Source: Octopus vulgaris
Taxonomy: Eukaryota
Direction of reading: 5' to 3'
Assembly: GCA_951406725.2 (NCBI GenBank)
Contig: OX597820.1
Location: forward strand, 125,426,001-125,490,000
DNA length: 64,000 nt
Below the pieces are notes generated by a model. The model was not told where the DNA came from and did not search any database. It saw only the letters and a list, made by a program, of their open reading frames with translations. Shown piece by piece: positions 9,092 to 53,114 of the stretch (within the stretch, counting starts at the first letter, position 1; every line of letters starts with the position of its first letter). A program made the position numbers and the translations under genes.

Positions 9092-10908
9092 CATAATGCG
9101 GACAAGGCATGATCTAGGAAAAGTTGCGCAATGGTTAAATGGAAACTGGATATGGTAAAAAGACCGACCGAGAAAGCCTAGAGAGAAAATATAAAGTACG
9201 GAAGAACGGGTTTGATGCAGTAAAAGAGGATCATGGAAAAAGCCAGGACATCAGAAGATTTATGAACAGAAATAAACAGTTCGAAGGAACAGATTGTTCA
9301 AAAATATCCCGAAGGAATTCTTTTGAACGATTGAATAAGACAATAGCGAAAACGTTGGTTCTGATGCAAATCAAGGCAAGGTGTTTTGGAGAGGATTATG
9401 ATGAAACAATGTCGTGCATAACAGGATGCAATGTAGATATGAACAATCAAGTGAGAATTACCATGAGGAAAGAAACAAAGGAATATTGTCATAAACACGG
9501 GAGATGTGAAAGTGGGTAAACTGGAAAGCTACCGGACCAGATAGGATTCAGGACTTCTCGCTGAAGAGATGCTACGCGGTGCATGAAAGTTTAGTAGCCC
9601 AATTAAATGAGCTTGTCAAGAAAGGTACAGTCCACGCGTGGATGGTGACCGGGAGGACAACACTTGTTATGAAAGATAGAAAATGGAATATTATGGGAGA
9701 CTACTGTCCCATAGCATGCCGGAATATAATCTGGAAGCTACTCACTGGAATATGTGCGGCAATGACATATCGTTTCATGGCACAGGAAGAAATACTATCA
9801 ATGGAACAAAAAAATGTAGTAAGATTTCTGAGGGGACCAAGGATCACCTGGTCATTGATAAAACTGCTTTGAGGCATTGTAAAAAGCATCATACAAACAT
9901 GTCTAAGGCTTGGGTTGACTTTAAAAAGGTATATGAAATGATGCGTCATTCTTGGATAGCTCAACGCTTGCAGATGTTTGGTGGTGCTGACAACATCACA
10001 AGTATTCTGATGCATAGTATGAAAGAGTGGAAAACCAAATTGTACTCAAGTAATGCATTCCGTGGAGAAGTTAATATTAAAGGTGACTCACTGTTTGCAA
10101 TTGCACTAATACCCATTAAAATGACACTTAGGAATGTTAAGGTGGGTTACCGCTGTGGTAAGAAAGGCCCAACATTGAATCATCTGTTTATGGATAACCT
10201 GAAATTGTTTGGTAAATCTGAAAAACAGATAGTTTCCTTAACCCAAGCACTCTAGAAGTGTGGTAGGAACATCTGTATGGAATTTGGGATTAGCAAATTC
10301 TCAGTACTTAATATGTACTGAGGGATGAAGGTAGCTTGCAGAAGATTGCGGTTACCATCAGGAGAGACACGAATGCATGGACAGTTTGACAGGAATATCA
10401 AGACAATAAGGATAATACAGCATGATGGGAATAGCTTGAGCGTGTTGATTTGAAGCATAACACCGAAAGCCTGATCATTGCTGCACAAAACCAGGCTCTT
10501 GCTACTAATTCAGTGAAGTATAACATCAACAAAACTTCTGACACCCATAAATGCAAACTCTGTGGGAAGAGTGTGGAAAATGTGAATCACTTATTAAGTG
10601 GATGTGAGAGCCTGGCACAAAATGAATACAAGCCCCACTACGATAATGTGTATGGAATGCGAAAGGATAATGTAAAAGTGAAACCGGTGGTGATTTGAGC
10701 GTTCAGCTCAATCGCATTGAAGCTTCAAGATTTCTTAAGGCAACTGGAAATCCCATGCAAGATTGATATCTTGCAAAAAGCAGTCGTATTGGACACAGCG
10801 CACATCTTAAGGGAATTATTATCTGTCTGGTGTCCTTGTGACTCGACAGATTACTAAAGACTCCGGCGCACTTTTACCTACACTGCGTTACGAAGTAATA
10901 ATAATAAC

Positions 10909-12531: not shown

Positions 12532-13290
12532 TCGGGGTGGGATAAATAAACACAAAAAATTATAAGCTAATGCAGTGAGGTTAAATAGGTACAGAGATGG
12601 ATATGTGATTATGTATTAAAATATACACTGAGACCAAAGGTGGTTATGTGTTCATATGTAGGGTATTCTGTATTTTTCGATAAATAAATTTATAAGTTTC
12701 TTTGTACTAGTAGATGGGGAAAACAGTCAAATTTGGTTGCGGATTCGCTGCACATCTCTCTATGTGTTCACTCAAAAGTATCTGTCAATATTTTGGGAAA
12801 CGGAGCTGTTTATTATGTAGTGTAGTTCTTCGTCAAAGTGCCATACTTGCCTGTCCAGAAACTGAAAAAGTTATAACTTAAATTAAATTCTGGGATGCAC
12901 AAGTTAAGCCGGGTCTTAATTATGAACTTTTCTCCTGGTTTGAATTGAAATTCCGAGCCTTCCAGTCGGTTTGGTCATGTTCCACACTCTGGAAGTACAC
13001 ATTTTTTACCGTTGGATTCATGGTTGTAGTGTAAAGCCTCCCGTTTTTAAGGAGTCTTTTCGGCGATTTGGGTTGCTTTTTACATTTGATGAATTTATGT
13101 GTTTTCAGAATGTTTTTCATTTTTGGATCACTAGTGAGCTAGTATTTTGTATAATACTGTTTTATGCCCCAGTATCTAGGGATGTGAGTTGATATATACA
13201 GTTGTACTTTGAGATGAGATGTGGTGTTTCATTTCGATTTCCTTTGTGTTTTAACGCCTATTTTCTTGGCACGTTTATTTCCATCATATA
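12532..13290 (-). mobile_element. PLE linker/GIY-YIG relic (minus copy)
   Basis: ORF 12920-13120 (…KCKKQPKSPKRLLKN…); reverse complement aligns with 13395-13963. Confidence 0.75.
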
Positions 13291-13394: not shown

Positions 13395-13963
13395 GATTTG
13401 GCGAAAAACAATCCACATCGCTGAAAAGACTCCTGACAAATGCGAAGCTTAACAAAATGACTACGAAACCAATGGTTAAGAAATGTGGATGTCCAGTGTG
13501 TGGAACAGGTTCCAACATGCTGGAAGGCTCGGAATTTCAATTCAAGCAAAGAGAGATGCTCAAAATTAAGACTAACTTCACATACGCATCTCAGAATTTA
13601 ATTTAATTTATAAATTGTTCAGGTTGTGGATATAACTATGTAAGTCATACAGGTATGGCACTTAGACGGAGAACAACACTACATAAGGAACAGCTCCGTT
13701 TCTCACATTAAGGACAGGTACCTTTGAGTGAACATATAAAGCGATGTGCTAGGCATCTCTAACCAAATTTCAGTTTCTCCATGTACCAGTGCAATGAAAC
13801 AGTTTATGTACAAGAACATTTAAATAAAGAAACTTTATTTATAAAAAAATACAGAACTCATAACCAACTTCGGTCTCTATATATATTTTAATTCATAATC
13901 TTATATCCATCACTGTACATATTTTAGCTTATGATTTTTTTTCCGTGTTTATTTATCCCATCC
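13395..13963 (+). mobile_element. PLE Zn-knuckle plus GIY-YIG relic (plus copy)
   Basis: KQSTSLKRLLTNAKL…VKKCGCPVCGT…ASQNLI*FINCSGCGYNYVSHTGMALRRRTTLHKEQLR…PLSEHIKRCA, matching the PLE pattern N.IY.I.C..C…YIG.T…R…H. Confidence 0.8.
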
Positions 13964-14571
13964 CGCTTGTATATCTGTCACTTCCAAGGTTCCGCTCTCT
14001 ATGAAACATATGTAGCCCTGATATTATCTACCCTGATATTAAAACACTAAGGGAAACGAAATGAAACACCACATCTCATTTCCTTAGCTATTGTATACAC
14101 ACATACACACACACGCACACATAGGCACACATACACACACATACACACGCATGGATATAGTGATTGACTTCTTCGTTATTTCAAAACAGAAAATAATTTT
14201 ACACTTCTCTTTAAAATAGAATTAATTTCTACAGGGTTGCAAGAAGTGTGATTTTACTAAAAGTGAAAATGCATTCGCTACTTTACATAATTTCTATACA
14301 TAACACATATATAAAGATATGTAATTCTATAAACAGGTCTACGTTAGCCCGACTTTCAGGGAATGCTCATTCTATAAACGTTTAGCGTAAAAGCCTCCAA
14401 ATCCACAAGTGTTCATGGTTTAGAGATAAAATATGAAGTAAGAAACTAAATTAAATACGAACAAGAATCGAGGCACTTCTCTTACTAGATGCTCACGAAC
14501 TCACAAACGCGACAAGCAAAAAGCAGATTCCAATAACTATATAATTGATGTATTCGTGTTACTTACTTTTT

Positions 14572-24197: not shown

Positions 24198-25482
24198 TCA
24201 GGTCATCCCATAAGTTCTGTCCGAATTTTGTATAAAGAAAACTAGTGATCAAATGTTATATTTAATTGAAATTTAATCATGAAATTACTTTACCTGATTA
24301 TCTAAGACTTCCTTCCATCTATTTACAAGATTTTTAATCTCATTAATGTAAAACCATTTTGGTTTTAAAACGAAGAACTCTGAAATGTCAGTTTCAACCT
24401 CCTCCTGGTTTGCGAAAGTTATGTCCCCCAGATGATTATGTAAACTACGATCCAAATGGTAGTCTGAAGGAGGAAGGTCGGGAGAATAATGTGGATGAGA
24501 AATTTTTTCCCACCCAAGCTCTTCGATCTTCTATGATGTGATCTTTGTAGTGTGGGGTCGCGCATTGTCCTGATGAAACAACACTCATTTTCGATTCATT
24601 TAACCGAGTCTTTTTTCTTCAAACCTTGGTTCAAACGCTCTAATTGCTGACAGTAGACTTGAGCATTGATTGTTGAATTAGGTGGTAAAAATTCAAAGTG
24701 AAATACTCTCTAGCAATCCCACCACATAGAGAAAAGGAACTTTTTCCATGAAGTTCCCTTCTCGGATGTGGTTGAGTTATTTCCCTTTTACCAAGCAACT
24801 GTTTACGACGTTTAACATTTCGATAGAGGATCCATTTTCCGTCACCAGTCACAAGTCTATCCAAAAAGAGTGAAATGAATTCGCGAGAATGGAGAGAAGA
24901 GAAGATATCAACTAGGGACATGCGGTTGCTCTCAGACAATTCATGAGGCACCCATTTTCCAAGTTTAGGAAACTTTCCAAGATGTTGAAGATGACGATGA
25001 ACAGTTGTATGGTTTGAACGACGCTTTATTGCCAATTCTTCAACTGATAATGCAGGATATTCTTCAAGCAATGTCTCAAAGAGCTTATAATTAAACTCAA
25101 CTGGACGTCCTGTTCGATCTTCATCTTCCTGGCTGAAATCTCCACTTCTGAATTTTGCAAACAATCTTCTGCAAGTTCTTTCATACAAGCATTATTTCCC
25201 ATAAACTGAGTGTATGTTTAGAGTCGCTTCGGCTGCAGAGGTTCCTTTTTTGTACTCATAAAGCATTATGTGCCTCAAATGCTCTTTGGATACTTCCATG
25301 TTAGAAAGGGTTTTAATCAAAGAAATTTTAATTCTATCTTTCTGTAAAATAATATTTAATTAGTTTAAATGTACACAAATGCATAAAATAAGTTTTAATT
25401 CCATTAGACATTCTAAAATACTATTAAATGCCATTCAATTTATAAAATGATAAAATCGGACAGAACTTATGGGATGACCTGA
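24198..25482 (-). mobile_element. Full-length mariner (DD34D) element with disrupted transposase
   Basis: Perfect 27-bp TIRs tcaggtcatcccataagttctgtccga, TA at 24196-97 and 25483-84. Transposase from 25299: MEVSKEHLRHIMLYEYKKG…, WVPHEL, LVTGDGKW, FHQDNARPH, HPHYSPDLPPSDY; in-frame stop and frameshifts. Confidence 0.95.
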
Positions 25483-26406: not shown

Positions 26407-27770
26407 CAGTGGGGAGAAATAAATATTCGTACAGAATAAATTTATGATTTTCTATGCCACAAAATACTGTTAAAATATGTTTTTTTACTAGAACTTTCCC
26501 GTTTGTTCCAATAATCTTATCAGTTGTCATTTTTAAGTGTCAAAACGCTAGCTTCTTCATTCAGGACAGTGGAAAGCAGGTAAAAGTTACAGGAAAATAT
26601 CAGAGATCCTTTATATTCCATTTTCTACCATATCTTCATTCATTCAAAGATATAAAAAAATTCGGGAACTATTGAAAACAGAAGAAGATCCAGTGCACCA
26701 TGCAAGATTTCTCCTAGATCTTTAAGAAAAATGAAGTGAAGAATAAAAAAAAAACGCAATGATCACCAGAAAGGAGTTGCAAGAATTTTTGTTAGCTTCA
26801 GGGACTAGTGTTACGCTACGAACAATCAGCAATGAACTTCATAGACATGAACTGAAGTCATGCTCTCCCAGAAAAACTCCGCTGTTGACTAAAAGGCATA
26901 GAGATGCCCGTTTAATATTTGTTTATGAACATAAAGATAAACCTGATACATTCTGGGAAAACTGTTCTATGGACAGACGAGTCGAAAATTGAATTGTTTG
27001 GAAGAAATTCGTGTAGCCATGTTTGGAAGAAAGATGTTACTACCTATTCGCCGAAAAAGACAATTCCTACCATAAAGTTTGGAGGTGGCAACATTATGGT
27101 GTGGGGGTGTTTCTCTGCAAATGGTACTGGCAATTTACATGTGATAGATTGTAGAATGAATGCAGAGATGTACCAAAATATTTTGAACAATAATTTATGG
27201 GACTCTGTAGAAAAGCTCCAGCTTTGTGAAGGGTGGGTTTTACAACAGGATAACGGCCCTAAGCACACAGCGATGTCTACCAAGAAATGGATTGTCGATC
27301 ACAATATAAAACTTATTAGAATGGCCAAGCCAGTCACCTGACTTGAACCCCATTGAAAATTTGCGGTGTTATTTGAAAATTAAAATTCGTTCAAGAGCCC
27401 CAATGTGAATTCCAGATTTGAAGAAAATTTGTCAAGAAGAATGGGAAAAAATTCCTAAAGAAACATGCGAGTCATTGATTAAGAACTACAAGAAGAGATT
27501 GGTTGAAGTGGAACTGAATAATGGTTATGCTACGAAGTATTAAATCAGAGTTATCAGTTATTTATGTTCTGTACGAATACTTTTTTCACCCCTAAATATT
27601 TATGATTGTATATAAATTCCTTAGTAACTATAATTTATTAGTTTCTTTTGCATACTCTTAGCTTATGCATGTGTATGCAAATATAGTATTGGTATATCCC
27701 ATTTATGTTCATTAGAAATGAGATAAATAAAGAATTTTGATACTTACGAATATTTATTTCCCCCCCACTG
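26407..27770 (+). mobile_element. Tc1-like (DD34E) element with disrupted transposase
   Basis: TA|cagtgggg…aaataaatattcgta TIRs with TA at both ends; [59 protein letters not shown] (stop at 27543); frameshifts. Confidence 0.95.
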
Positions 27771-32173: not shown

Positions 32174-33100
32174 AATTATTGTATACAGTACTCAGGTGCA
32201 CCACGACTTGTCAGACAGTGCATATAAAGCACATGCAGTAACGTACAAATGTCTGGAAATTGAACAATGCGTGAGTCAGACACATGCTTGTGTGTGTATG
32301 GAGAGGAGAGAATCAGGTGTAGTGTTGGCGAATCTCAGAAAACATGGATGTTTTGAAGGATACAGTGCTCCGACAACTAACAACTGATGCCGGCAGTTTG
32401 TTCCATGCTTCAGCAACTCTCAGCGGGAAAAAAGATTCCTAAAGTCATGGAAGCTGTGCTGTTTTCTGACTTTGTAAATATGTCCACGGGTGTTAGATGG
32501 GTGGAGTTTGAAAAGGTGCTCAGAGTTATTGTTTGTGCGATGGTTGATAATTTATGGGTGTCTGCCAAGTCAGCTGCCAGTCGTCGGAGTTTCAATGTGT
32601 CCATGGCCTGGGAAGTAAGGCGCTCATAATATGGCAAATGCCTGATGGAGGGTATTCTTTTGGTTGCACGTCGCTAAACGGCTTCCAGACGATTGATATC
32701 CTGGGCAAGATAGGGGTTCCAGCCCGGTGATGCAAATTCCAGGTGAAGTCTTACCATAGCTGTATAAAGCCGCAGATAGATAGTCGGAGAGCGGCTCACA
32801 AAGGAATTGGTGAGTGATGCCAAGACACCCTCAGCCTTCTTGACAATTTTAGCGATGTGTTTTGTCCAACGCAAATCACTGTCGACAATAACACCCAGGT
32901 CACGTTCACATGGAGACTTTTTGAGACTAGTGTTGTGGAGGGAGTAGGTAGACGCTGGGTTTCTCCTCCCAAAATGCATGGTGGTACATTTGTCCACAGC
33001 CAGCTTGAGTTGCCAGTCCATGATCCACTGCTGCATTGTGTCCAGGTCTGCTTGCAATAGAGATCTATAGTGTACAGGATCTGACCTCTCTATTTCGAAC
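32142..33100 (-). mobile_element. 5'-truncated CR1-type LINE with (ATT)n tail
   Basis: DLDTMQQWIMDWQLKLAVDKC, RDLGVIVDSDL, LYTAMVRLHLEFASPGWNPY, RLEAV*RRATK, YYERL…LRRLAADL; tail at 32142-32171. Confidence 0.88.
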
Positions 33101-33374
33101 ACAGAGTTTGAGAAAACAGTTTACCATTATATTCTCTTAATTTTTAAGATGACAAAATAGTTATAAAATTATATATATCGACAATACATCGAGTGAAGAT
33201 GTTTAACCAATGCCTTATGATATAAACTGACTTTAATGGTCGAAGAATAAATTTATAAACAATCTCTAACGTTTTCAGCTATATATGAGTTAATGGTCAC
33301 CTATTGTATCATAGTTATTTGGAAAAGTAATCATGCTTTAACTTTCAAATAATCACTACCTATCTTTATGACGT

Positions 33375-37205: not shown

Positions 37206-37376
37206 ATAATAGAACTTAAAAGAGACCCTAAAGGAGATGAACGTGCAAGAATGAGAGCAACTTTTAAAAAACCTTCATCCAAACAAATTAGTATTGAGCC
37301 ACCAAATACAGAATTGCACCAAAAGCTGACTTTAGTGAGTGATGAAAACATGAGATACAAACAAATACTGGAACAG
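37206..37376 (+). CDS. GABBR2: Internal coding exon of a GABA-B receptor subunit 2-like class C GPCR (segment after TM7, start of coiled coil)
   Basis: Pyrimidine-rich acceptor ttcttttttgttttcag, donor CAG|gtaggc, 171 nt, phase 0/0, open frame [57 protein letters not shown]. Resembles the invertebrate GABA-B-R2 segment following ...VFVPK (recalled as LVELKRNPQG..RVRATL). Recognised from memory, not searched. Confidence 0.85.
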
Positions 37377-39079: not shown

Positions 39080-41260
39080 AAGCACCTGGAAGAGACTTGA
39101 TTGTCGGATATTGGTACAAGAAGCTAACCTTCTACCGAAATATCTTATCAATCTGTACCCGCAATATTTCAATGGGAACAGTAGCATGCCACATTGTTTT
39201 GCTCTGGCAGGGACAAAATTGATCTCCAAATACAGAGCCACCCAGATGACAAAATCTACCGGTCAATTGAATGGCGACACTTAATATATAAGATATACAG
39301 TATGCTTAAACCTCTTCCTCCAAGCTCAATGAAACCAATTACATCATCAGAGCAGAACAAGCAGCTGGGAAGAAGTGGGTGTGGGGGATGTACCGAGCAG
39401 TTGTTGATAAAAGAAAACTGTTATTTCAGAGGTACCAAAACAAAGAAGAACCTAGTTTCAATGTGGCTAGACTACAAGAAAGCCTTTGACTCTGTTCCCC
39501 ATTCATGGATGCTAGAAGCCCTTCAACCTGCTAAAGTTCCAGTGAGAATTGACAAAGCCGTAACTGACTTTGCTTCATCGTGGGCCACCATCTTGAAATT
39601 AAACACAAAGAGTGACTGTATTATTACTGACAGAATACAGTAATGCACAGGCATATTCCAAGGGGGCAGCCTCTCTGTGATGCTCTTTATACTTTCCGTA
39701 AACCTCTCGTCATTCATATTATGGAAATCTGAAGGATATCTCACTGATTTACCAGCAAACTGAAATACCAAAACTACACACTTTTTCTTTGTGGATGACT
39801 AGAAACTTTATGCAAAGAATATGCCTGTGATGAAAATGAGCCTTATCCTAATTGAAACATGGTTAAAGGATGTAGGGTTGGAGTTTTGCCAGGATAAATG
39901 TTGTTGTATGGTTGTGAAAAGGGGGAAAACTATAGACCAGACTAGCTACATCTCCGTGAATGCTCTGACTGTTTCCTCTTTATCTGACGAGGAATATTAC
40001 AGGTATCTAGGAGTGGATGAAAACATATCTTGCAATGGCCCCTGTAACAAAACGCCTGTCAGTAAAGAATATTTCAACAGAATAAAGAAAGTTTGGGCCT
40101 CAGAACTCTCTGCATTCAATAAAACAGTGGCCCACAATGTGTTTGCAGTGCCAGTACTCATACCAACATTTGGGCTGCTTGATTGGACGCTTAATGAGAT
40201 CCGAGACATTGATGTGAAAACCTCCAAAATACTAGCAAGCACACATAATTTCCATATAAACAGTGACGTATACCGCCTCTATCTGAAACGAAAACAGAGT
40301 GGCAGAAGTTCAACATCGATCCAAAATGCCTTTGAATGTCGTATAAAATCCCTTCGGTAACATCTTTTGATCACCAAGTATCGAAGTCCTTCTCTTGACC
40401 AAGTTTGCATACATGAGGCTGATATCATAAAACTTGGAAGGCAGCTCCTTGAGCAACATTCTTAATCTGATGGCCTAGAATAGATGCCCAAAGAAGTCGA
40501 ACGGCTCTACTGCAACCTATCATAAGATGAAAGGATGAGCCTATATGAGCAGAGACTATGCATGGATATGTTAGTAGAAGACACCATGATGACAGAAACA
40601 TTGATCACGAAAGCAGTCTATCATGGACCAATAGCCGGATTACTACCTTCCACTTTGAAGGGTATGCGCTTGCAAACTAGGAACAGGAAATATAAACTAA
40701 GTGCCTGATGGATAAAACAGATAGAGATGCAGAAAATTTGGGATAGAGAAGAGAAACTGTGTAGTGTACAGTTATGGAAATTAGCTGCCAGCGGATGTTA
40801 AACATAAAGCTAAAAATCAGTGAAAAAGACAATACATGTGCTGAACTATTGAGAAATTTGCAATTATTCTATCCAGATCAAAAGTTCATGTCTATACTTG
40901 TAATTATTGTGGCCCTGTGATATGTAACACACTGAATAAATATCAATCTCAAGAAATTAGGCTTCTCAAAACCAGAAAGAAAGAATTCGAAGCCTACAGA
41001 TTCAATCAGTCACCGGAACTGTTAAAATCTTTTAAAATTTCCAGAAGTTTAGCATATATAGATATGCAGATACATGCATGAGATACATATATCAAGCAAA
41101 ACATACAAATCTGCACATATACTTGCACGCATGCATACATACATACATACAAAAATACCCTATTGTTGATTTTAAAATTCCAGTGCAGGTATCTTGGATC
41201 TAGGTTAGAAACCGGCGCTTTCTCTATTGGCAAGAAATCTTAAAATAAAACTGAACAATG
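39080..41260 (+). mobile_element. R4/Dong-type LINE, 5'-truncated and decayed, with 3' UTR
   Basis: GCGGCTEQLLI, MWLDYKKAFDSVPHSWMLEAL, GIFQGGSLS, FFVDD*KLYA, YRYLG, HNVFAVPVL, RLYLKRKQSGRS, SVTGTVKI; many stops. Confidence 0.88.
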
Positions 41261-42954
41261 ACATACATACATACAAGCAAACAGACAGACATACATGCAT
41301 ACATACGTGTGTATCATTAAATATATTTTACTTCTGGGTTAGACGATTTTGCATTACTGAACGTCCAAAATTTAGGTCCTATTTTTTCTCTCAATTTTTG
41401 CACCATGAAATCAAATAGATATTGTCAATTATTATATATGTTCTAATGTGTGTAATATATAACTATAAATGCTTAAATGTAACAATTTATTGCGGTTGAA
41501 TGTGAATTAGCTTTAGTAGGATAAGGACCCGAATAACCGATATCGAAATGTTGGATAGTGTTTTTTCTCCAATCTCCAGAATTCAATTAGAGATTAGTTA
41601 CGAAAGTGTTGTCAAAAAATATTTGTTTGGCATCAATACATATAGAGATTGCTTCAATATTTTTTTTTATATCTTATTTCTTTTAAACTTACTTCTTTAT
41701 GCACTGTAATAACGTTTTATATTGTATAAGCATTCATTTCAATTCCATTAAATACTTACCTATTCCTTTGATAAAATAATATTGTTCTAATAATGTTTTG
41801 TTTACTTTTCCTCGGTTTTATTCTGTTATTTTGATGCATTCTTCGTTTTTGTTCGTTTCCCTTATAACACACACAGTGCAGCCGAAAGAAAACCCGTATA
41901 GACCATGACATTTACTAGAACTAATCAGAAAACAATGCTCTTAAAGTGTCTTTAAAAAAACCTTGTTCTAGTTATAAAATAACTCGCGTATTTTGACATT
42001 TATAGCTTGATACCAACCATAACTTTTTAATCTTCCTGCACTATATTCGATGACGCTCAGACTATAATCCTCAAATATAAAGAATATAATCATCAAAAGT
42101 TTATTCAAAAAATAAAATCTCTATTGTTTACATCATGGCAAACATTACACAACCTTTATATTTTTCAAAGCACGTGAAGCTTTAGCAATGGAATAAAATA
42201 CATATGAGGATGGAAATGTTTAACGAAAAGCAGTTGTTTTGAATATATATTGAAAGTATTTACATATAATACGCCCATAACCTTTGGTTAAATTTATCAT
42301 TTATATACAATGTCTATGGATCTTTGTTGAGAAAGTGAAGTTTAACTATAACACGTTGAAATCGAATGTGGAATATCACATAAATTACTATTTTCAATAT
42401 GCCCATCGATTATTTCAAAGAATCACATTTATTTTCGAACTCAAAATACATGGTAGCGAAAGTCCATACCTTAAAATACTATTTTTCAGTGAATCAAATA
42501 CATTCGGGCACATAAAATTAAACTTGTAGCTTTCCTTATTCCCCTAATAATTACATGTTTTTCTTTGCAATGCTTATATCACTTTTTGAATGTGGTTGTA
42601 TTTACTATCTGACAAAATAGAAACAATTATCCATAGTATAATTGTGTTATGCGAAGGTTTGTTTAGCACTCATGTATTTTGTGTTTCATCCAATATCAGT
42701 TCTTTGGATAGGAAATCACAGTGCGCATTTTTGGGGCCCTTGCAAACTCTTAGGAAACTTGAGAACCTCGAACAAAAACACAATCGAGGAATTAAGTTTT
42801 TTTTCTCTATATCCGTTTATTTAGAAATATATCTTGTCAGAATTTCAAAGTAGACTACCGAACAGTGAGTAAACGATTGACATCTGGTTTACATCTGCTT
42901 GACATAAAATTATTGCAAATTTGGTTATCTCTCTTGTTTTCTTCTCCTTCTCTA

Positions 42955-43271
42955 CAACACGTAGCTATTATACGTAATACAAATATTGACAACACATTCG
43001 TCTCAAATAAGTAAAGGATAGGTTTAATATGACATTCTTACGTAAAATTTAAAAATAGTGGACGATAGCAAATGGCGTACATTTGAGTCTTGATCTATTC
43101 GTGGAACTTTAAAATATACAAAACAATAATAGTAACAACAATTCCATCATCGAACCAGTATTTCTCTCAGTAGAACTACGAAAGTTTTTCGTCATATCAC
43201 TTTCCCCTATCCTCCTCAATGTACACCTGAGCAACGTCTCTTTCCAACAACCGCATTTTTCAAATGCTCTG
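42955..43271. repeat. Left arm of a 317-bp inverted repeat, flanked by the 11-bp direct repeat cttctctacaa
   Basis: Reverse complement of 45649-45965 with 10 substitutions and no indels (manual count); direct repeat at 42947-42957 and 43272-43282. Confidence 0.95.
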
Positions 43272-43500
43272 CTTCTCTACAAACGTATCTGGTTTAAACG
43301 TTATCTACTCAAAAGACAACTACCAAACGGTTTCATTTTCAGTTTCATTAATGGGGGAATAAATTATTCTTTCGACAAGGCAACACCTTGCTGTATTTAG
43401 AAGATTTGTAGTTTTTTTATGATGAGCTTATCTTTACTATCGCAGCTGATCGACTGCTTTTCTTTTCTACTTTTTGAAGCATTACCACATGAATGTTGTG

Positions 43501-43581
<81 letters not shown>

Positions 43582-43688
43582 ATTCATTTATAATCGATTA
43601 AATTTGTTCATTATGTTTTTCATTCTACAAAGAAACTGCTAAATTAGCCCTGGTTACAGAGGTGTTATATAGGACACACACACACACA

Positions 43689-43730
<42 letters not shown>

Positions 43731-43738
43731 GACACACG

Positions 43739-43777
<39 letters not shown>

Positions 43778-44146
43778 TGTGTTTCAACCCCTTTCCGTCT
43801 TTTCGTAAGTCTTCCCAAGTTCCATAACATATATAAATTTGCTACTGACATACGTTCTCTTCTACCTATTTATAAAAACTATATCTAATTATCTTTAATT
43901 CAAGCAGACTACACTTTCCTTTATGTTTCTTTATATTTCTCCTTTCATTATATTATCAATCATCTTATAATTCGCCAACTTCCCATGTATGAATAATGGA
44001 ATAGTTTCTGGAAGTATATTTCAGAGTAACTTGAGATTTGCGAAATTCACATTGTTGATATTAAGATGTTCATACACATAAGATAATATAAAGACAAGTT
44101 TTACTTAGAGTAACGTATGAGTTTTAAATATAGGTTTTGTTGTGTG

Positions 44147-44182
<36 letters not shown>

Positions 44183-44186
<4 letters not shown>

Positions 44187-44420
44187 TCCGTTTCCTTGTT
44201 GTGTTCTACGTTTATTTGTGGTGTCCTGTGCTCCTATATATATATGTATGCATGTATATATACATGTAGTTGTAAGTATGTACATATATGTATGTATATA
44301 TACATGTAGATGTAAGTATGTATATATATATATATGTATGTATATATGCATTTATTTTATTTATATATTATATTACTATATGACCGAACACACGCGTTAT
44401 TTCTCTATTTCTCTTCTCCA

Positions 44421-44425
<5 letters not shown>
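44183..44425 (+). mobile_element. Partial copy of repeat family H
   Basis: aagtccgtttcc…ggtgtcctgt…tatatgaccgaac matches the reverse complement of roughly 53760-53950. Confidence 0.65.
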
Positions 44426-44452
<27 letters not shown>

Positions 44453-45524
44453 CGAGGGGTACCCAAAAGTAACCATGAACGTTCTCTGTGTGACAATCCC
44501 GTTGTTTAGGCCTTCGCCTCCGGATGCCGCTTGCTACGACGTTCAGGCATCTGTCTGCCGACCGGCGTCATCCATTGTTTTCGTACTGCATCGTTGTGTC
44601 TTTGTTTTGCACTGCTCCTTCCCTGTTTGCTGACTTTTGTGGTGGCAGCGTGCTTTCGTGAAATTCAGTTTTCTGCTGAAGAGAAAAAGGCAGCCGAGAC
44701 AGTTGTTACGCTTCAAACAGCTTACCAGGACGCTGCCATGAGCAACACACAAGTTTATGAGAAGTTTCAACGCTTTAGGAATGGGGACTTCCTACATGAT
44801 GACCAACTTCGTTCAGTCAACTTCCCGAACGAATGAAAACATCATGAAAAGCAATGAACTGATTTGGGAGAACCGTCATTGAACAAGGGACGAACTTGTT
44901 GATATGGCTGATGTGACCCGGAGCCCCTGCCAATAAATTTTGAGCGAGGAATTGCAAATGATAAGAGTTGCAGCAAAACTTGTGTCCTGCCTGCTCACAG
45001 AAGATCAAAAGTAGTCACAATTGAATGCGTGTCGTGAATCGAAAGAAAAATTTGTTCCTCCTGGTCAAATTGTTAACTAATCATTTTCCTTGGCAGTTGT
45101 GAAGCACTTGCGAGACACGTTGAGATGAATAATCCCCGACCTGTAGCAAAATGGGAAGTGGTGGTTTTATCGCTAGAATGCGCCTGCGCACCTTGTGTAT
45201 GAATCAGTTTATGATCAAAATGGCATAACACCGCTTACTCACCCGATCTTGCTTCCTGCGACTTTTTTTGGTTTTTTTCTCGAATGCAAAATGTCCTTAG
45301 AGGAAAACGTTTTGCAGATGTGGACGAGAAGAAGAAAAAAACGGAGGCGTTAAAATCCATCACTTTGCAAAAGATCCAGAACTACTCCGAGAAATGGAAA
45401 ACGCGTCTGAACCGATACATTGCTACAAATGGAGAATACTTTGAAGGTGGTAAACGTATAAACGTGTAAAAGTAATTGAATAAAATATATTGCGAAATTC
45501 CGGTTTCTTCTGGATACCCGCTCG
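44453..45524 (+). mobile_element. Decayed, internally deleted mariner (irritans-like)
   Basis: Degenerate TIRs cgaggggtacccaaaagtaacc / ggtttcttctggatacccgctcg; KAAETVVTLQTAYQDAAMSNTQVYE, RVAAKLVSCLLTEDQK, PDLASCDFF, KWKTRLNRYIATNGEYFEG. Confidence 0.85.
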
Positions 45525-45648
45525 GATATATTAAAGAGATTTGTCATGTAAAGCCGAAACAACGACAGAAGACACAAAGTAGATTGCAGAAGGATAAGAA
45601 ACGAAGAAAATTTCCAGTTCCCTCTTCTAGTTATGTATTCCCCGTTTT

Positions 45649-45965
45649 CAGAGCATTTGAAAAATGCGGTTATTGGAAAGAGACGTTGCTCAGGTGTACA
45701 TTGGGGAGGATGGGGGAAAGTGATATGACGAAAAACTTTCGTAGTTCTACTGAGAGAAATACTGGTTCTATGATGGAATTGTTGTTACTGTTATTGTTTA
45801 GTATATTTTAAAATTTCACGAATAGATCAAGACTCAAATGTACGCCATTTGCTATCGTCCACTATTTTAAAATTTTACGTAAGAAAGTCATATTAAACCT
45901 ATCCTTTACTTATTTGAGACGAATGTGTTGTCAATATTTGTATTACGTATAATAGCTACGTGTTG
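45649..45965. repeat. Right arm (probable donor) of the 317-bp inverted repeat
   Basis: Reverse complement of 42955-43271. Confidence 0.95.
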
Positions 45966-49651: not shown

Positions 49652-50807
49652 TAAGTTCATTGAGAATGAAATGACCAATTTTCTTATGGACCAAGTTTCA
49701 CGGTCGTTAACGCTAATGTTTTATCCGGATAATTCCTCATTTATTCATTCGAAATATAATTCATGGTCTCTGGTTATATTGTGAGTTTTCTCTTGTAAAT
49801 CAACTAATGGATAGATAAAATATTCGTGTTTATGAATATGAGTTTTGTCGTTGAACCAATGCATCCTAGACAGGTCGAAACACTAATGAGGTGTTTGGCG
49901 AAGTTGTGGCGAATGAGCGCACTGTACGTCGATGGTTTGAGAAGTTTCGGTCTGTTGACTTTACTCTAGAACATCAGCCCTGAGACCACGGTGGAGAAAT
50001 GATGTGCTGTAAATTGTAGTGGAAGCGGATACATCGCAAATTAAGCGAGAGTTAGCAACAAGGTTTGATGTCCCAATTCTATCTGAAACAAATCGGCAAC
50101 GTAAAGAAGCTGGACAAGCTGATACCACACGAAATGAACGAATGTTTACTGTCATGGCATAAAAGCAAACCATTTTTGCATCGTATGATGAAAAATGGAT
50201 TCTTTTCAACTATAGCAAGCTTTCTTCACGGTGGCTGAATGGAGAAATAGTGCCAAAATACAATCCAAAAAAGAATATTCACCAAAAAGTACGAATGGAG
50301 TCTGTTTAGGGGTCCAGCGCTAGTGTCATCCACTACAGATTCAGGAGACCTGGTAAGTCAATTACAGCAGATGTATGCATCAACAAAATGGATGAAACTA
50401 TGAGTGAACTTGCAATTAAACAACCGAGTTTGATCAACAGAGACAGCTCAATTCTCTTGCAAGACTGCTCGACCAAATGTGGCACAAAGAACGCTTCTCA
50501 AGTTATAGGAACTGAACTTGGAAGTACTCTGTAATCCACCATATTCACCAGACGTTGCACCAACTGGCTATCATGTTTCCCAGACATTAGACAACATTTT
50601 GGAAGGAAAAAAAACTTCAAATCAGAAGAATATGCAAAAATAGCTTTTCGTGATTTCATCACTTCTTGCTCTCCAGAATTCTTCGCTGCCGGCGTAAATA
50701 AGCTACCGATAAAATGGCAAAATTGAGTTGATAATTTAGGTGCATACTTTGATTAACTGCAATGCTTTTACAATTCAAAATTGGAGATTTTATTCTTAAT
50801 GACCTGA
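49652..50807 (+). mobile_element. Decayed mariner (cecropia-like)
   Basis: Imperfect TIRs taagttcattgagaatgaaatgaccaatttt / aaaattggagattttattcttaatgacctga with TA flanks; NEVFGEVVANERTVRRWFEKFRS, YDEKWI, PPYSPDVAPT, KWQN*VDNLGAYFD*. Confidence 0.88.
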
Positions 50808-52975: not shown

Positions 52976-53114
52976 AAAAACAAAGAAATCCAAGAACTGA
53001 TGGAACAATTAGGAGATGAAGCGAGTTTATATGAAACATCAATGAAAACACCAGTACATAAAATGGTAGAATCATTAAAAACTACTGATACATCTCCTAG
53101 CAAGTACTCAAGAA
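52976..53114 (+). CDS. GABBR2: Next coding exon of the GABBR2-like gene (end of coiled coil plus Ser/Thr-rich tail)
   Basis: Acceptor ttcttttctcttcttag, donor gtaagt, 139 nt, phase 0/1: KNKEIQELMEQLGDEASLYETSMKTPVHKMVESLKTTDTSPSKYSR. Joins the previous exon in frame (…YKQILEQ|KNKEIQELMEQLG), matching the recalled GABA-B2 pattern …KALMEKENELQALIRKLG. Confidence 0.82.

Follow-up and report, generated by a model that had tools for sequence, protein, structure and literature searches.

An inverted 317-base local copy with an 11-nt target duplication in a likely GABA-B receptor intron of Octopus vulgaris, most likely made by DNA break repair

How did an intronic sequence come to stand in two inverted copies, only one of which is bracketed by a short direct repeat? 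The question is raised by a 64,000-nt stretch of Octopus vulgaris DNA (contig OX597820.1; hereafter the window), the features of which are collected in Table 1. On realignment, 42955-43271 and the reverse complement of 45649-45965 agreed in 307 of 317 bases without gaps, and the two arms were separated by 2377 nt. The left arm, and not the right one, is bracketed by an exact 11-mer, cttctctacaa, which starts at 42947 and 43272 and is found nowhere else in the window. Random 317-nt segments were bracketed by an exact 11-mer (±5 nt) in 10 of 20,000 trials. The final 3 nt of the left 11-mer (caa, 42955-42957) are common to the donor end, a match expected by chance in about 2% of cases per junction (per-base match chance 0.279). 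Neither a poly(A) tail nor terminal inverted repeats (TIRs) were visible on inspection of the left-arm insert. An earlier note had described the arms, the one-sided bracket, the pairing of caa with the donor end and the lack of tail and TIRs, and all of this was reproduced here. Under the 11-nt reading, the right junction of the left arm is blunt and shows no exact microhomology. Alternatively, a 15-nt duplication with a single mismatch (42943-42957 against 43268-43282, 14/15) would give a 3-nt match at the second junction as well.

Table 1. Features at and around the inverted copy (positions in the window)
Feature	Position	Strand	Basis or remark
GABA-B receptor 2-like exon	37206..37376	+	match to GABA-B receptor subunit 2, PDB 9jqx_B, E 3.5e-4
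Old dispersed repeat, left half	42747..42946		70-83% identity to other copies; split by insertion
Target duplication, left copy (11 nt)	42947..42957	+	last 3 nt match donor end; one copy in paralogues of the interrupted repeat
Inserted inverted copy, acceptor arm	42958..43271	-	317 nt including the shared 3 nt; two genome copies
Target duplication, right copy (11 nt)	43272..43282	+	blunt joint; not so in the 15-nt reading (one mismatch)
Same old repeat, right half	43283..43490		ends at (TA)n tract
Decayed mariner relic between arms	44453..45527	+	HTH_48; 67-76% identity to sampled copies
Second old repeat	45526..45727		copies L003 and L018 cross 45649
Template of putative fold-back inverted copy (organisms B, D)	45526..45743		contigs and junction reading; copy itself not in window
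Donor (native) arm	45649..45965	+	arm alignment; old repeat crossing its edge
Likely next exon	52976..53114	+	called from AG...GT splice signals and reading frame alone; itself without a family match

The arms likely sit in a 15.6-kb intron of a + strand gene for a GABA-B receptor subunit 2-like protein, as judged from the exon match and the splice signals. GABBR2 had been proposed as the host gene before, and the + strand exon upstream of the arms agrees with this proposal. A 7tm_3 exon on the + strand lies 11 kb before the window, and the arms are 5.6 kb away from the nearest identified exon. Relics of reverse transcriptases are also present in the window.

The direction of copying could be read from copy number and from the surrounding repeats. 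BLAST against the 2.8-Gb genome gave two full-length matches to the arm, which hence does not belong to a multi-copy transposable element (TE); the sole further match was 79 nt long at 77%. This search passes over very common words, and a 24-nt pattern from the arm, sought genome-wide with up to 2 mismatches, was found once in forward and once in reverse orientation (control, 0). The flanks of the left arm are the two halves of one old dispersed repeat, which are adjacent without the insert at 24 of 40 scored candidate loci (hand count). Seven of eight aligned paralogues of the interrupted repeat span the insertion site. At the donor, two distant copies of another old repeat, L003 and L018, run across the left edge at 45649. 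Since the left arm interrupts an old repeat and an old repeat crosses the edge of the right arm, the left arm is the insert, in line with the locally templated inverted insertion suspected earlier. The 11-mer motif is doubled in none of the aligned paralogues and occurs once, at 10/11 identity, in two of them, which argues that it was doubled at insertion. The pyrimidine tract of the paralogues, which are 70-80% alike, is 5-32 nt longer than a one-copy model predicts, so that length alone is indecisive. The mariner relic is old enough, from its divergence to sampled copies, to predate the duplication, and the gap between the arms was therefore similar when the copy was made. Altogether, the repeat comparison supports a new left arm, a native right arm and a true target duplication.

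Other individuals and organisms were compared by short-read contigs from 5 of 24 listed runs, 4 of which addressed the acceptor site. In organism C, one 941-nt contig covers 42600-43418 through both junctions, ungapped and with 26 differences (about 3% divergence from the window). Since this contig crosses both junctions, the insertion is real and older than that split. Run X2, which carries the same organism label and comes from another study, gave contigs at both junctions, and X4 (organism B) gave one at the left junction only. All of these reach 27-30 nt into the arm and thus stay below our rule of 31 nt for bridging a junction. The insertion therefore appears in independent sequencing runs. 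An empty acceptor allele was seen in none of the four short-read runs (organism C filled, organism B with the left junction, organism D without cover). The acceptor arm of organism C shows 10 differences to the acceptor of the window and 13 to the donor, and the arms of the window differ from each other at 10 sites; divergence between arms thus equals divergence between orthologues. As far as these sequences tell, the counts agree with copying at around the organism C split and neutral drift thereafter. Run X8, which we guess to be RNA, yielded two short contigs without listed differences, one of which extends over the right acceptor junction. X2 also held a collapsed 317-nt contig with donor letters at 9 sites, which raised gene conversion between the arms. 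We do not claim it: the 9 sites fall into about 3 assembly bubbles and the read depth fits bubble removal.

We consider it most likely that the left arm is a one-off inverted copy of 317 bases, templated by DNA 2.4 kb away during repair of a staggered break in the germline. Nicks in the two strands, offset by about 11 nt, would leave 3' overhangs, one of which would engage nearby DNA in inverted orientation and be extended by about 314 nt. After its release, the new strand would be joined to the opposite end; the 3-nt match would have served for priming or for re-joining, and fill-in of both overhangs would double the 11-mer. SDSA-type synthesis, polymerase theta or another activity would be candidates, and the arms would have drifted like neutral DNA afterwards. 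Small duplications do arise experimentally in cells from breaks with 3' overhangs, as reported in the available part of PMC8355091. Against break repair count the junction without exact microhomology and the fact that the empty site is known from paralogues only.

The kind of event would not be new. Pace, Sen, Batzer and Feschotte (2009; PMC2671141, cited here and below from the part available to us) described 824 human inserts in TEs that reach 619 bp in length (mean 162 bp) and have a single donor no more than 5 kb away (mean gap 1.2 kb), and likewise inferred SDSA-type synthesis. Among 39 inspected cases, 6 had a target-site duplication (TSD) of 4-21 nt, 3 were of the type with microhomology and TSD ('MH+TSD') and none had poly(A); a TSD is thus a minority outcome in this class (PMC2671141). 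The octopus locus shows an interrupted repeat, one other copy, a donor 2377 nt off and no tail, together with 3-nt microhomology and an 11-nt TSD at the junctions. It resembles the 'MH+TSD' cases, in which an insert of at least 50 bp splits an old repeat, has one donor within 5 kb and lacks a tail, and in which microhomology is 2-9 nt and the TSD 4-21 nt long (PMC2671141). From its sequence features we would therefore assign it to the proximal repair-mediated duplications of the microhomology-and-TSD type. Two differences concern the survey of Pace et al., which by that text covers vertebrates only, whereas ours is an invertebrate genome, and which takes the empty site from orthologues and not, as here, from paralogues (PMC2671141). 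The DNA-repair alternative of the earlier note is thus the better of its two readings, and it belongs to a class already published (PMC2671141). A literature search on repair-mediated duplication, judged by titles, returned no mollusc study.

To see the event in context, a sample of 1.864 Mb from seven chromosomes was searched for pairs of at least 50 nt and at least 85% identity, 50-5000 nt apart and without an equally close relative in the sample. Fifty-eight pairs passed; 3 TIR-like and 4 tandem-like pairs were dropped and 51 kept, the index case included. Orientation was balanced (27 direct, 24 inverted; p=0.78), and in 50 of the 51 pairs the copies were less than 3 kb apart (0.23 expected by random placement). 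The mean gap of 1171 nt (1.17 kb) and mean length of 184 nt are close to the 1.2 kb and 162 bp of Pace et al.; the available part of that paper gives no orientation counts (PMC2671141). Six hand-picked pairs, checked genome-wide, were 3 true local copies, 2 young TEs and 1 ambiguous case. Local two-copy duplications with a distance cut-off near 3 kb thus appear to be frequent here. Taking half of the 27 per Mb as real gives a density of about 14 per Mb, a loose figure; for human, 0.62 per Mb of TE DNA is reported by a stricter method. The earlier note had called for a scan for local copies flanked by a TSD. TSD-like flanks were present in 3 of 51 pairs with the index case and in 2 of 50 without it (p=0.017 against the null), one of these two being ambiguous. 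Donor and acceptor could not be told apart by interrupted repeats, which gave 0 hits for all 58 pairs, index case too, so that this method has no power here. We also found 48 palindromes in 1.26 Mb; as repair events they were left uncounted, those examined (at least 84%) mostly having TA-rich flanks and several having ends in common, in the manner of MITEs.

The other explanations have to be weighed against break repair. An assembly artefact has next to no probability. All compared data are short-read contigs, which leaves some room for it, but the arms differ at 10 sites, the organism C contig spans both junctions, and contigs from X2 reach both of them (with 27-30 nt inside the arm). A transposon origin of the arms, as two separate copies or as the TIRs of a single 3-kb element, is very improbable. 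Long-TIR elements are common in this genome and 2 of the 6 checked survey pairs were young TEs. However, the arm has only two copies genome-wide, the duplication flanks one arm and not the whole 3-kb unit, the old host repeat goes on between the arms and the edge of the donor lies within another old repeat; as far as these searches reach, a TE, TIR or MITE origin was rejected on these grounds. A four-point template switch during replication (FoSTeS/MMBIR-like) would do without a staggered break, and we regard it as unlikely. The nascent strand would leave at 42957, copy the opposite strand from 45965 to 45649 and return 11 nt early, at 42947, before its point of departure. This predicts exactly the observed geometry. 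In the available text of Walker et al. (2021, PMC7954356), point 4 precedes point 1 in many events, leaving direct and inverted repeats, and both switch papers (PMC7954356, PMC5453318, as far as available) likewise yield a reverse-complement fragment within a direct repeat. Human inverted duplications from long reads are, in the portion of PMC12350158 at hand, the commonest inversion class other than mobile-element insertions (MEI), with a median of 284 bp and junctions with microhomology, mostly of 1-15 bp, and are read as replicative. They are polymorphic, and their TSDs and donor distances are not stated in that portion, whereas the octopus event is common to several organisms (PMC12350158). 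Against a switch stands the fact that the first short-range set from human and chimp, to judge from the available part of PMC5453318, contained no return-first events. The published models are also short-range, whereas the jump here is about 3 kb and the copy 314 nt (PMC7954356, PMC5453318, same parts), and survey pairs are direct as often as inverted (27 vs 24). By sequence alone, its product is the same as that of break repair.

A TSD is also a mark of target-primed reverse transcription, and the earlier note had proposed that LINE or Penelope machinery, acting in cis at a nick in the target, reverse-transcribed the nascent sense pre-mRNA of the host gene. We rate this as unlikely as well. 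The 11-nt TSD is of retroposition size, reverse-transcriptase relics lie in the window, and priming from the left end by the 3-nt match would make the template the sense strand of the + strand gene. The 3-nt match fits sense-strand priming or re-joining after antisense priming, is compatible with priming by either end and is therefore no pointer to RNA; the proposed priming of the left 3' end on the sense strand was not confirmed, nor was a pre-mRNA template, the insert having no tail or other mark of retroposition besides the TSD. Inspection of both junctions found no retroelement sequence and no poly(A), and the TTTT/A target and the poly(A) signal with tail are absent from both. Here lies the difference from class 1 TSIPs, which are LINE-1-mediated and likewise carry a TSD (at least 5 bp) around copied non-TE DNA, but come from distant source sites and have tail and signal, whereas the octopus donor is local (PMC5110952, from the part available). 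RNA can patch breaks in human cells according to the same part of PMC5110952; a tail was nevertheless found in 0 of the 39 human proximal cases (PMC2671141, same part as above). Local templated insertions that accompany L1 form fusions with it and typically lie within 15 bp (bioRxiv 2024.08.27.596794). The 10 arm mismatches bear no editing imprint (2 C/T against 3 T/C), which is weak evidence because, prior to copying, the donor would have had no partner to pair with. Break repair templated by DNA therefore remains our preferred reading.

Another observation concerned the donor end of the locus. Two runs from different studies, X4 (organism B) and X9 (organism D), contain a contig that reads from 45678 down to 45526 and then from 45532 onward, and another that joins 45743 to the mariner end. 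We infer from these contigs an extra inverted copy of about 212 nt beside its template in organisms B and D. Its centre would be a self-complementary ATATAT and its bracket a direct repeat of 6-7 nt. The fold-back arms differ from each other, so that a library hairpin is unlikely, and the copy fits snap-back of DNA. At 45565 and 45611, the single copy of the window matches one fold-back arm and organism C the other; loss of the palindrome in the lineage of the window is one reading of these letters. The same donor region would thus have been used twice, for the left-arm insert and for the fold-back copy in related organisms.

The arms are predicted to pair in the pre-mRNA, with a computed duplex of -525.8 kcal/mol. 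The earlier note saw here a TE-independent way to long intronic dsRNA; as a source of it, the event is minor. Of 35 inverted pairs (at least 100 nt, within 5 kb) in 1.86 Mb, which also held 17 palindromic hits, no more than 11 were private to the sample and not TIR-like. No extra conservation of the arms was found (10 of 317 between arms; 10 and 13 differences for the organism C acceptor). Selection on pairing was not upheld: besides this lack of conservation, the 4 wobble against 2 A-C transitions are uninformative. The event shows no sign of function.

In conclusion, a genome-wide set of local duplications with gene annotation would make the question of a DNA or RNA template directly testable. 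It is quite unlikely that nascent pre-mRNA, copied in cis by LINE or Penelope reverse transcriptase, is the engine of tens of thousands of local duplications. If it were, the inverted half of the copies would supply ADAR with long private intronic dsRNA, and two insertions from one donor would make the receptor intron a hotspot. Taken singly, the event is ordinary and of value as a clearly polarised invertebrate case of a class known from vertebrates. The side results, common local duplications and a second inverted copy in related organisms, are worth slightly more.

Local two-copy duplications, both direct and inverted, were common in the 1.864 Mb that we surveyed in the genome holding the window (G000; chromosomes C1, C2, C3, C5, C7, C10, C12 and C16), and they showed a sharp cut-off near 3 kb, with 50 of the 51 pairs below it. 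About half of the survey pairs that were checked were true local copies.

Other arrangements were also observed elsewhere in this genome. At locus L150 (G000:C2:90084720-90087726), an inverted copy of 700 nt lay 1.2 kb from its partner. Its start was repeated immediately afterwards in a direct copy of 423 nt, so that the two formed a palindrome. The copies were 94-99% identical, and either serial switching or a young transposable element could account for them. Another palindrome, of 2.4 kb and 98% identity, contained nested internal repeats and adjoined (TA)n (L113-L114, G000:C10:40119159-40122114). Loci L189-L190 (G000:C12:70079565-70080466) belonged to a young repeat family with at least 40 loci of 95-99% identity, in which a unit of about 360 nt occurred in varied tandem and inverted arrays, often together with a 60-nt end piece; the family is possibly of the Penelope type. 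On C5, three 7tm_3 exon matches with equal scores were spaced by about 24 kb (G000:C5:121026245, 121050094 and 121074018), explained either by a tandem triplication of recent origin or by a repeat in the assembly.

Transposon relics and old repeats in the window
Feature	Window positions	Remarks
Mariner relic, decayed	44453-45527	TA target and TIRs still recognisable
Non-LTR retroelement fragments, broken	9139-10695, 39185-40705, 32413-33120	RVT_1 matches weak, two of the three
Further frames resembling remnants of mariner/Tc1 transposase (putative)	24288-25191, 26747-27338, 50056-50723	
Old inverted pair	12533-13080 and 13404-13965	70% identity across ~550 nt

At the donor arm, short-read contigs of the related organisms B and D (runs X4 and X9) pointed to a further inverted copy, roughly 212 nt long, with window positions 45526-45743 as its template. 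As reconstructed from these contigs, it would form a perfect fold-back centred on ATATAT, accompanied by a 6-7 nt direct repeat and by the loss of 12 nt at the mariner end. The window does not carry this second copy, yet it has letters in common with one of the B/D arms.

A direct local copy of 51 nt at L128 (G000:C16:30063555-30063718) lay between copies of a 14-nt repeat with one mismatch, making this locus a second candidate for the subtype with a target-site duplication.
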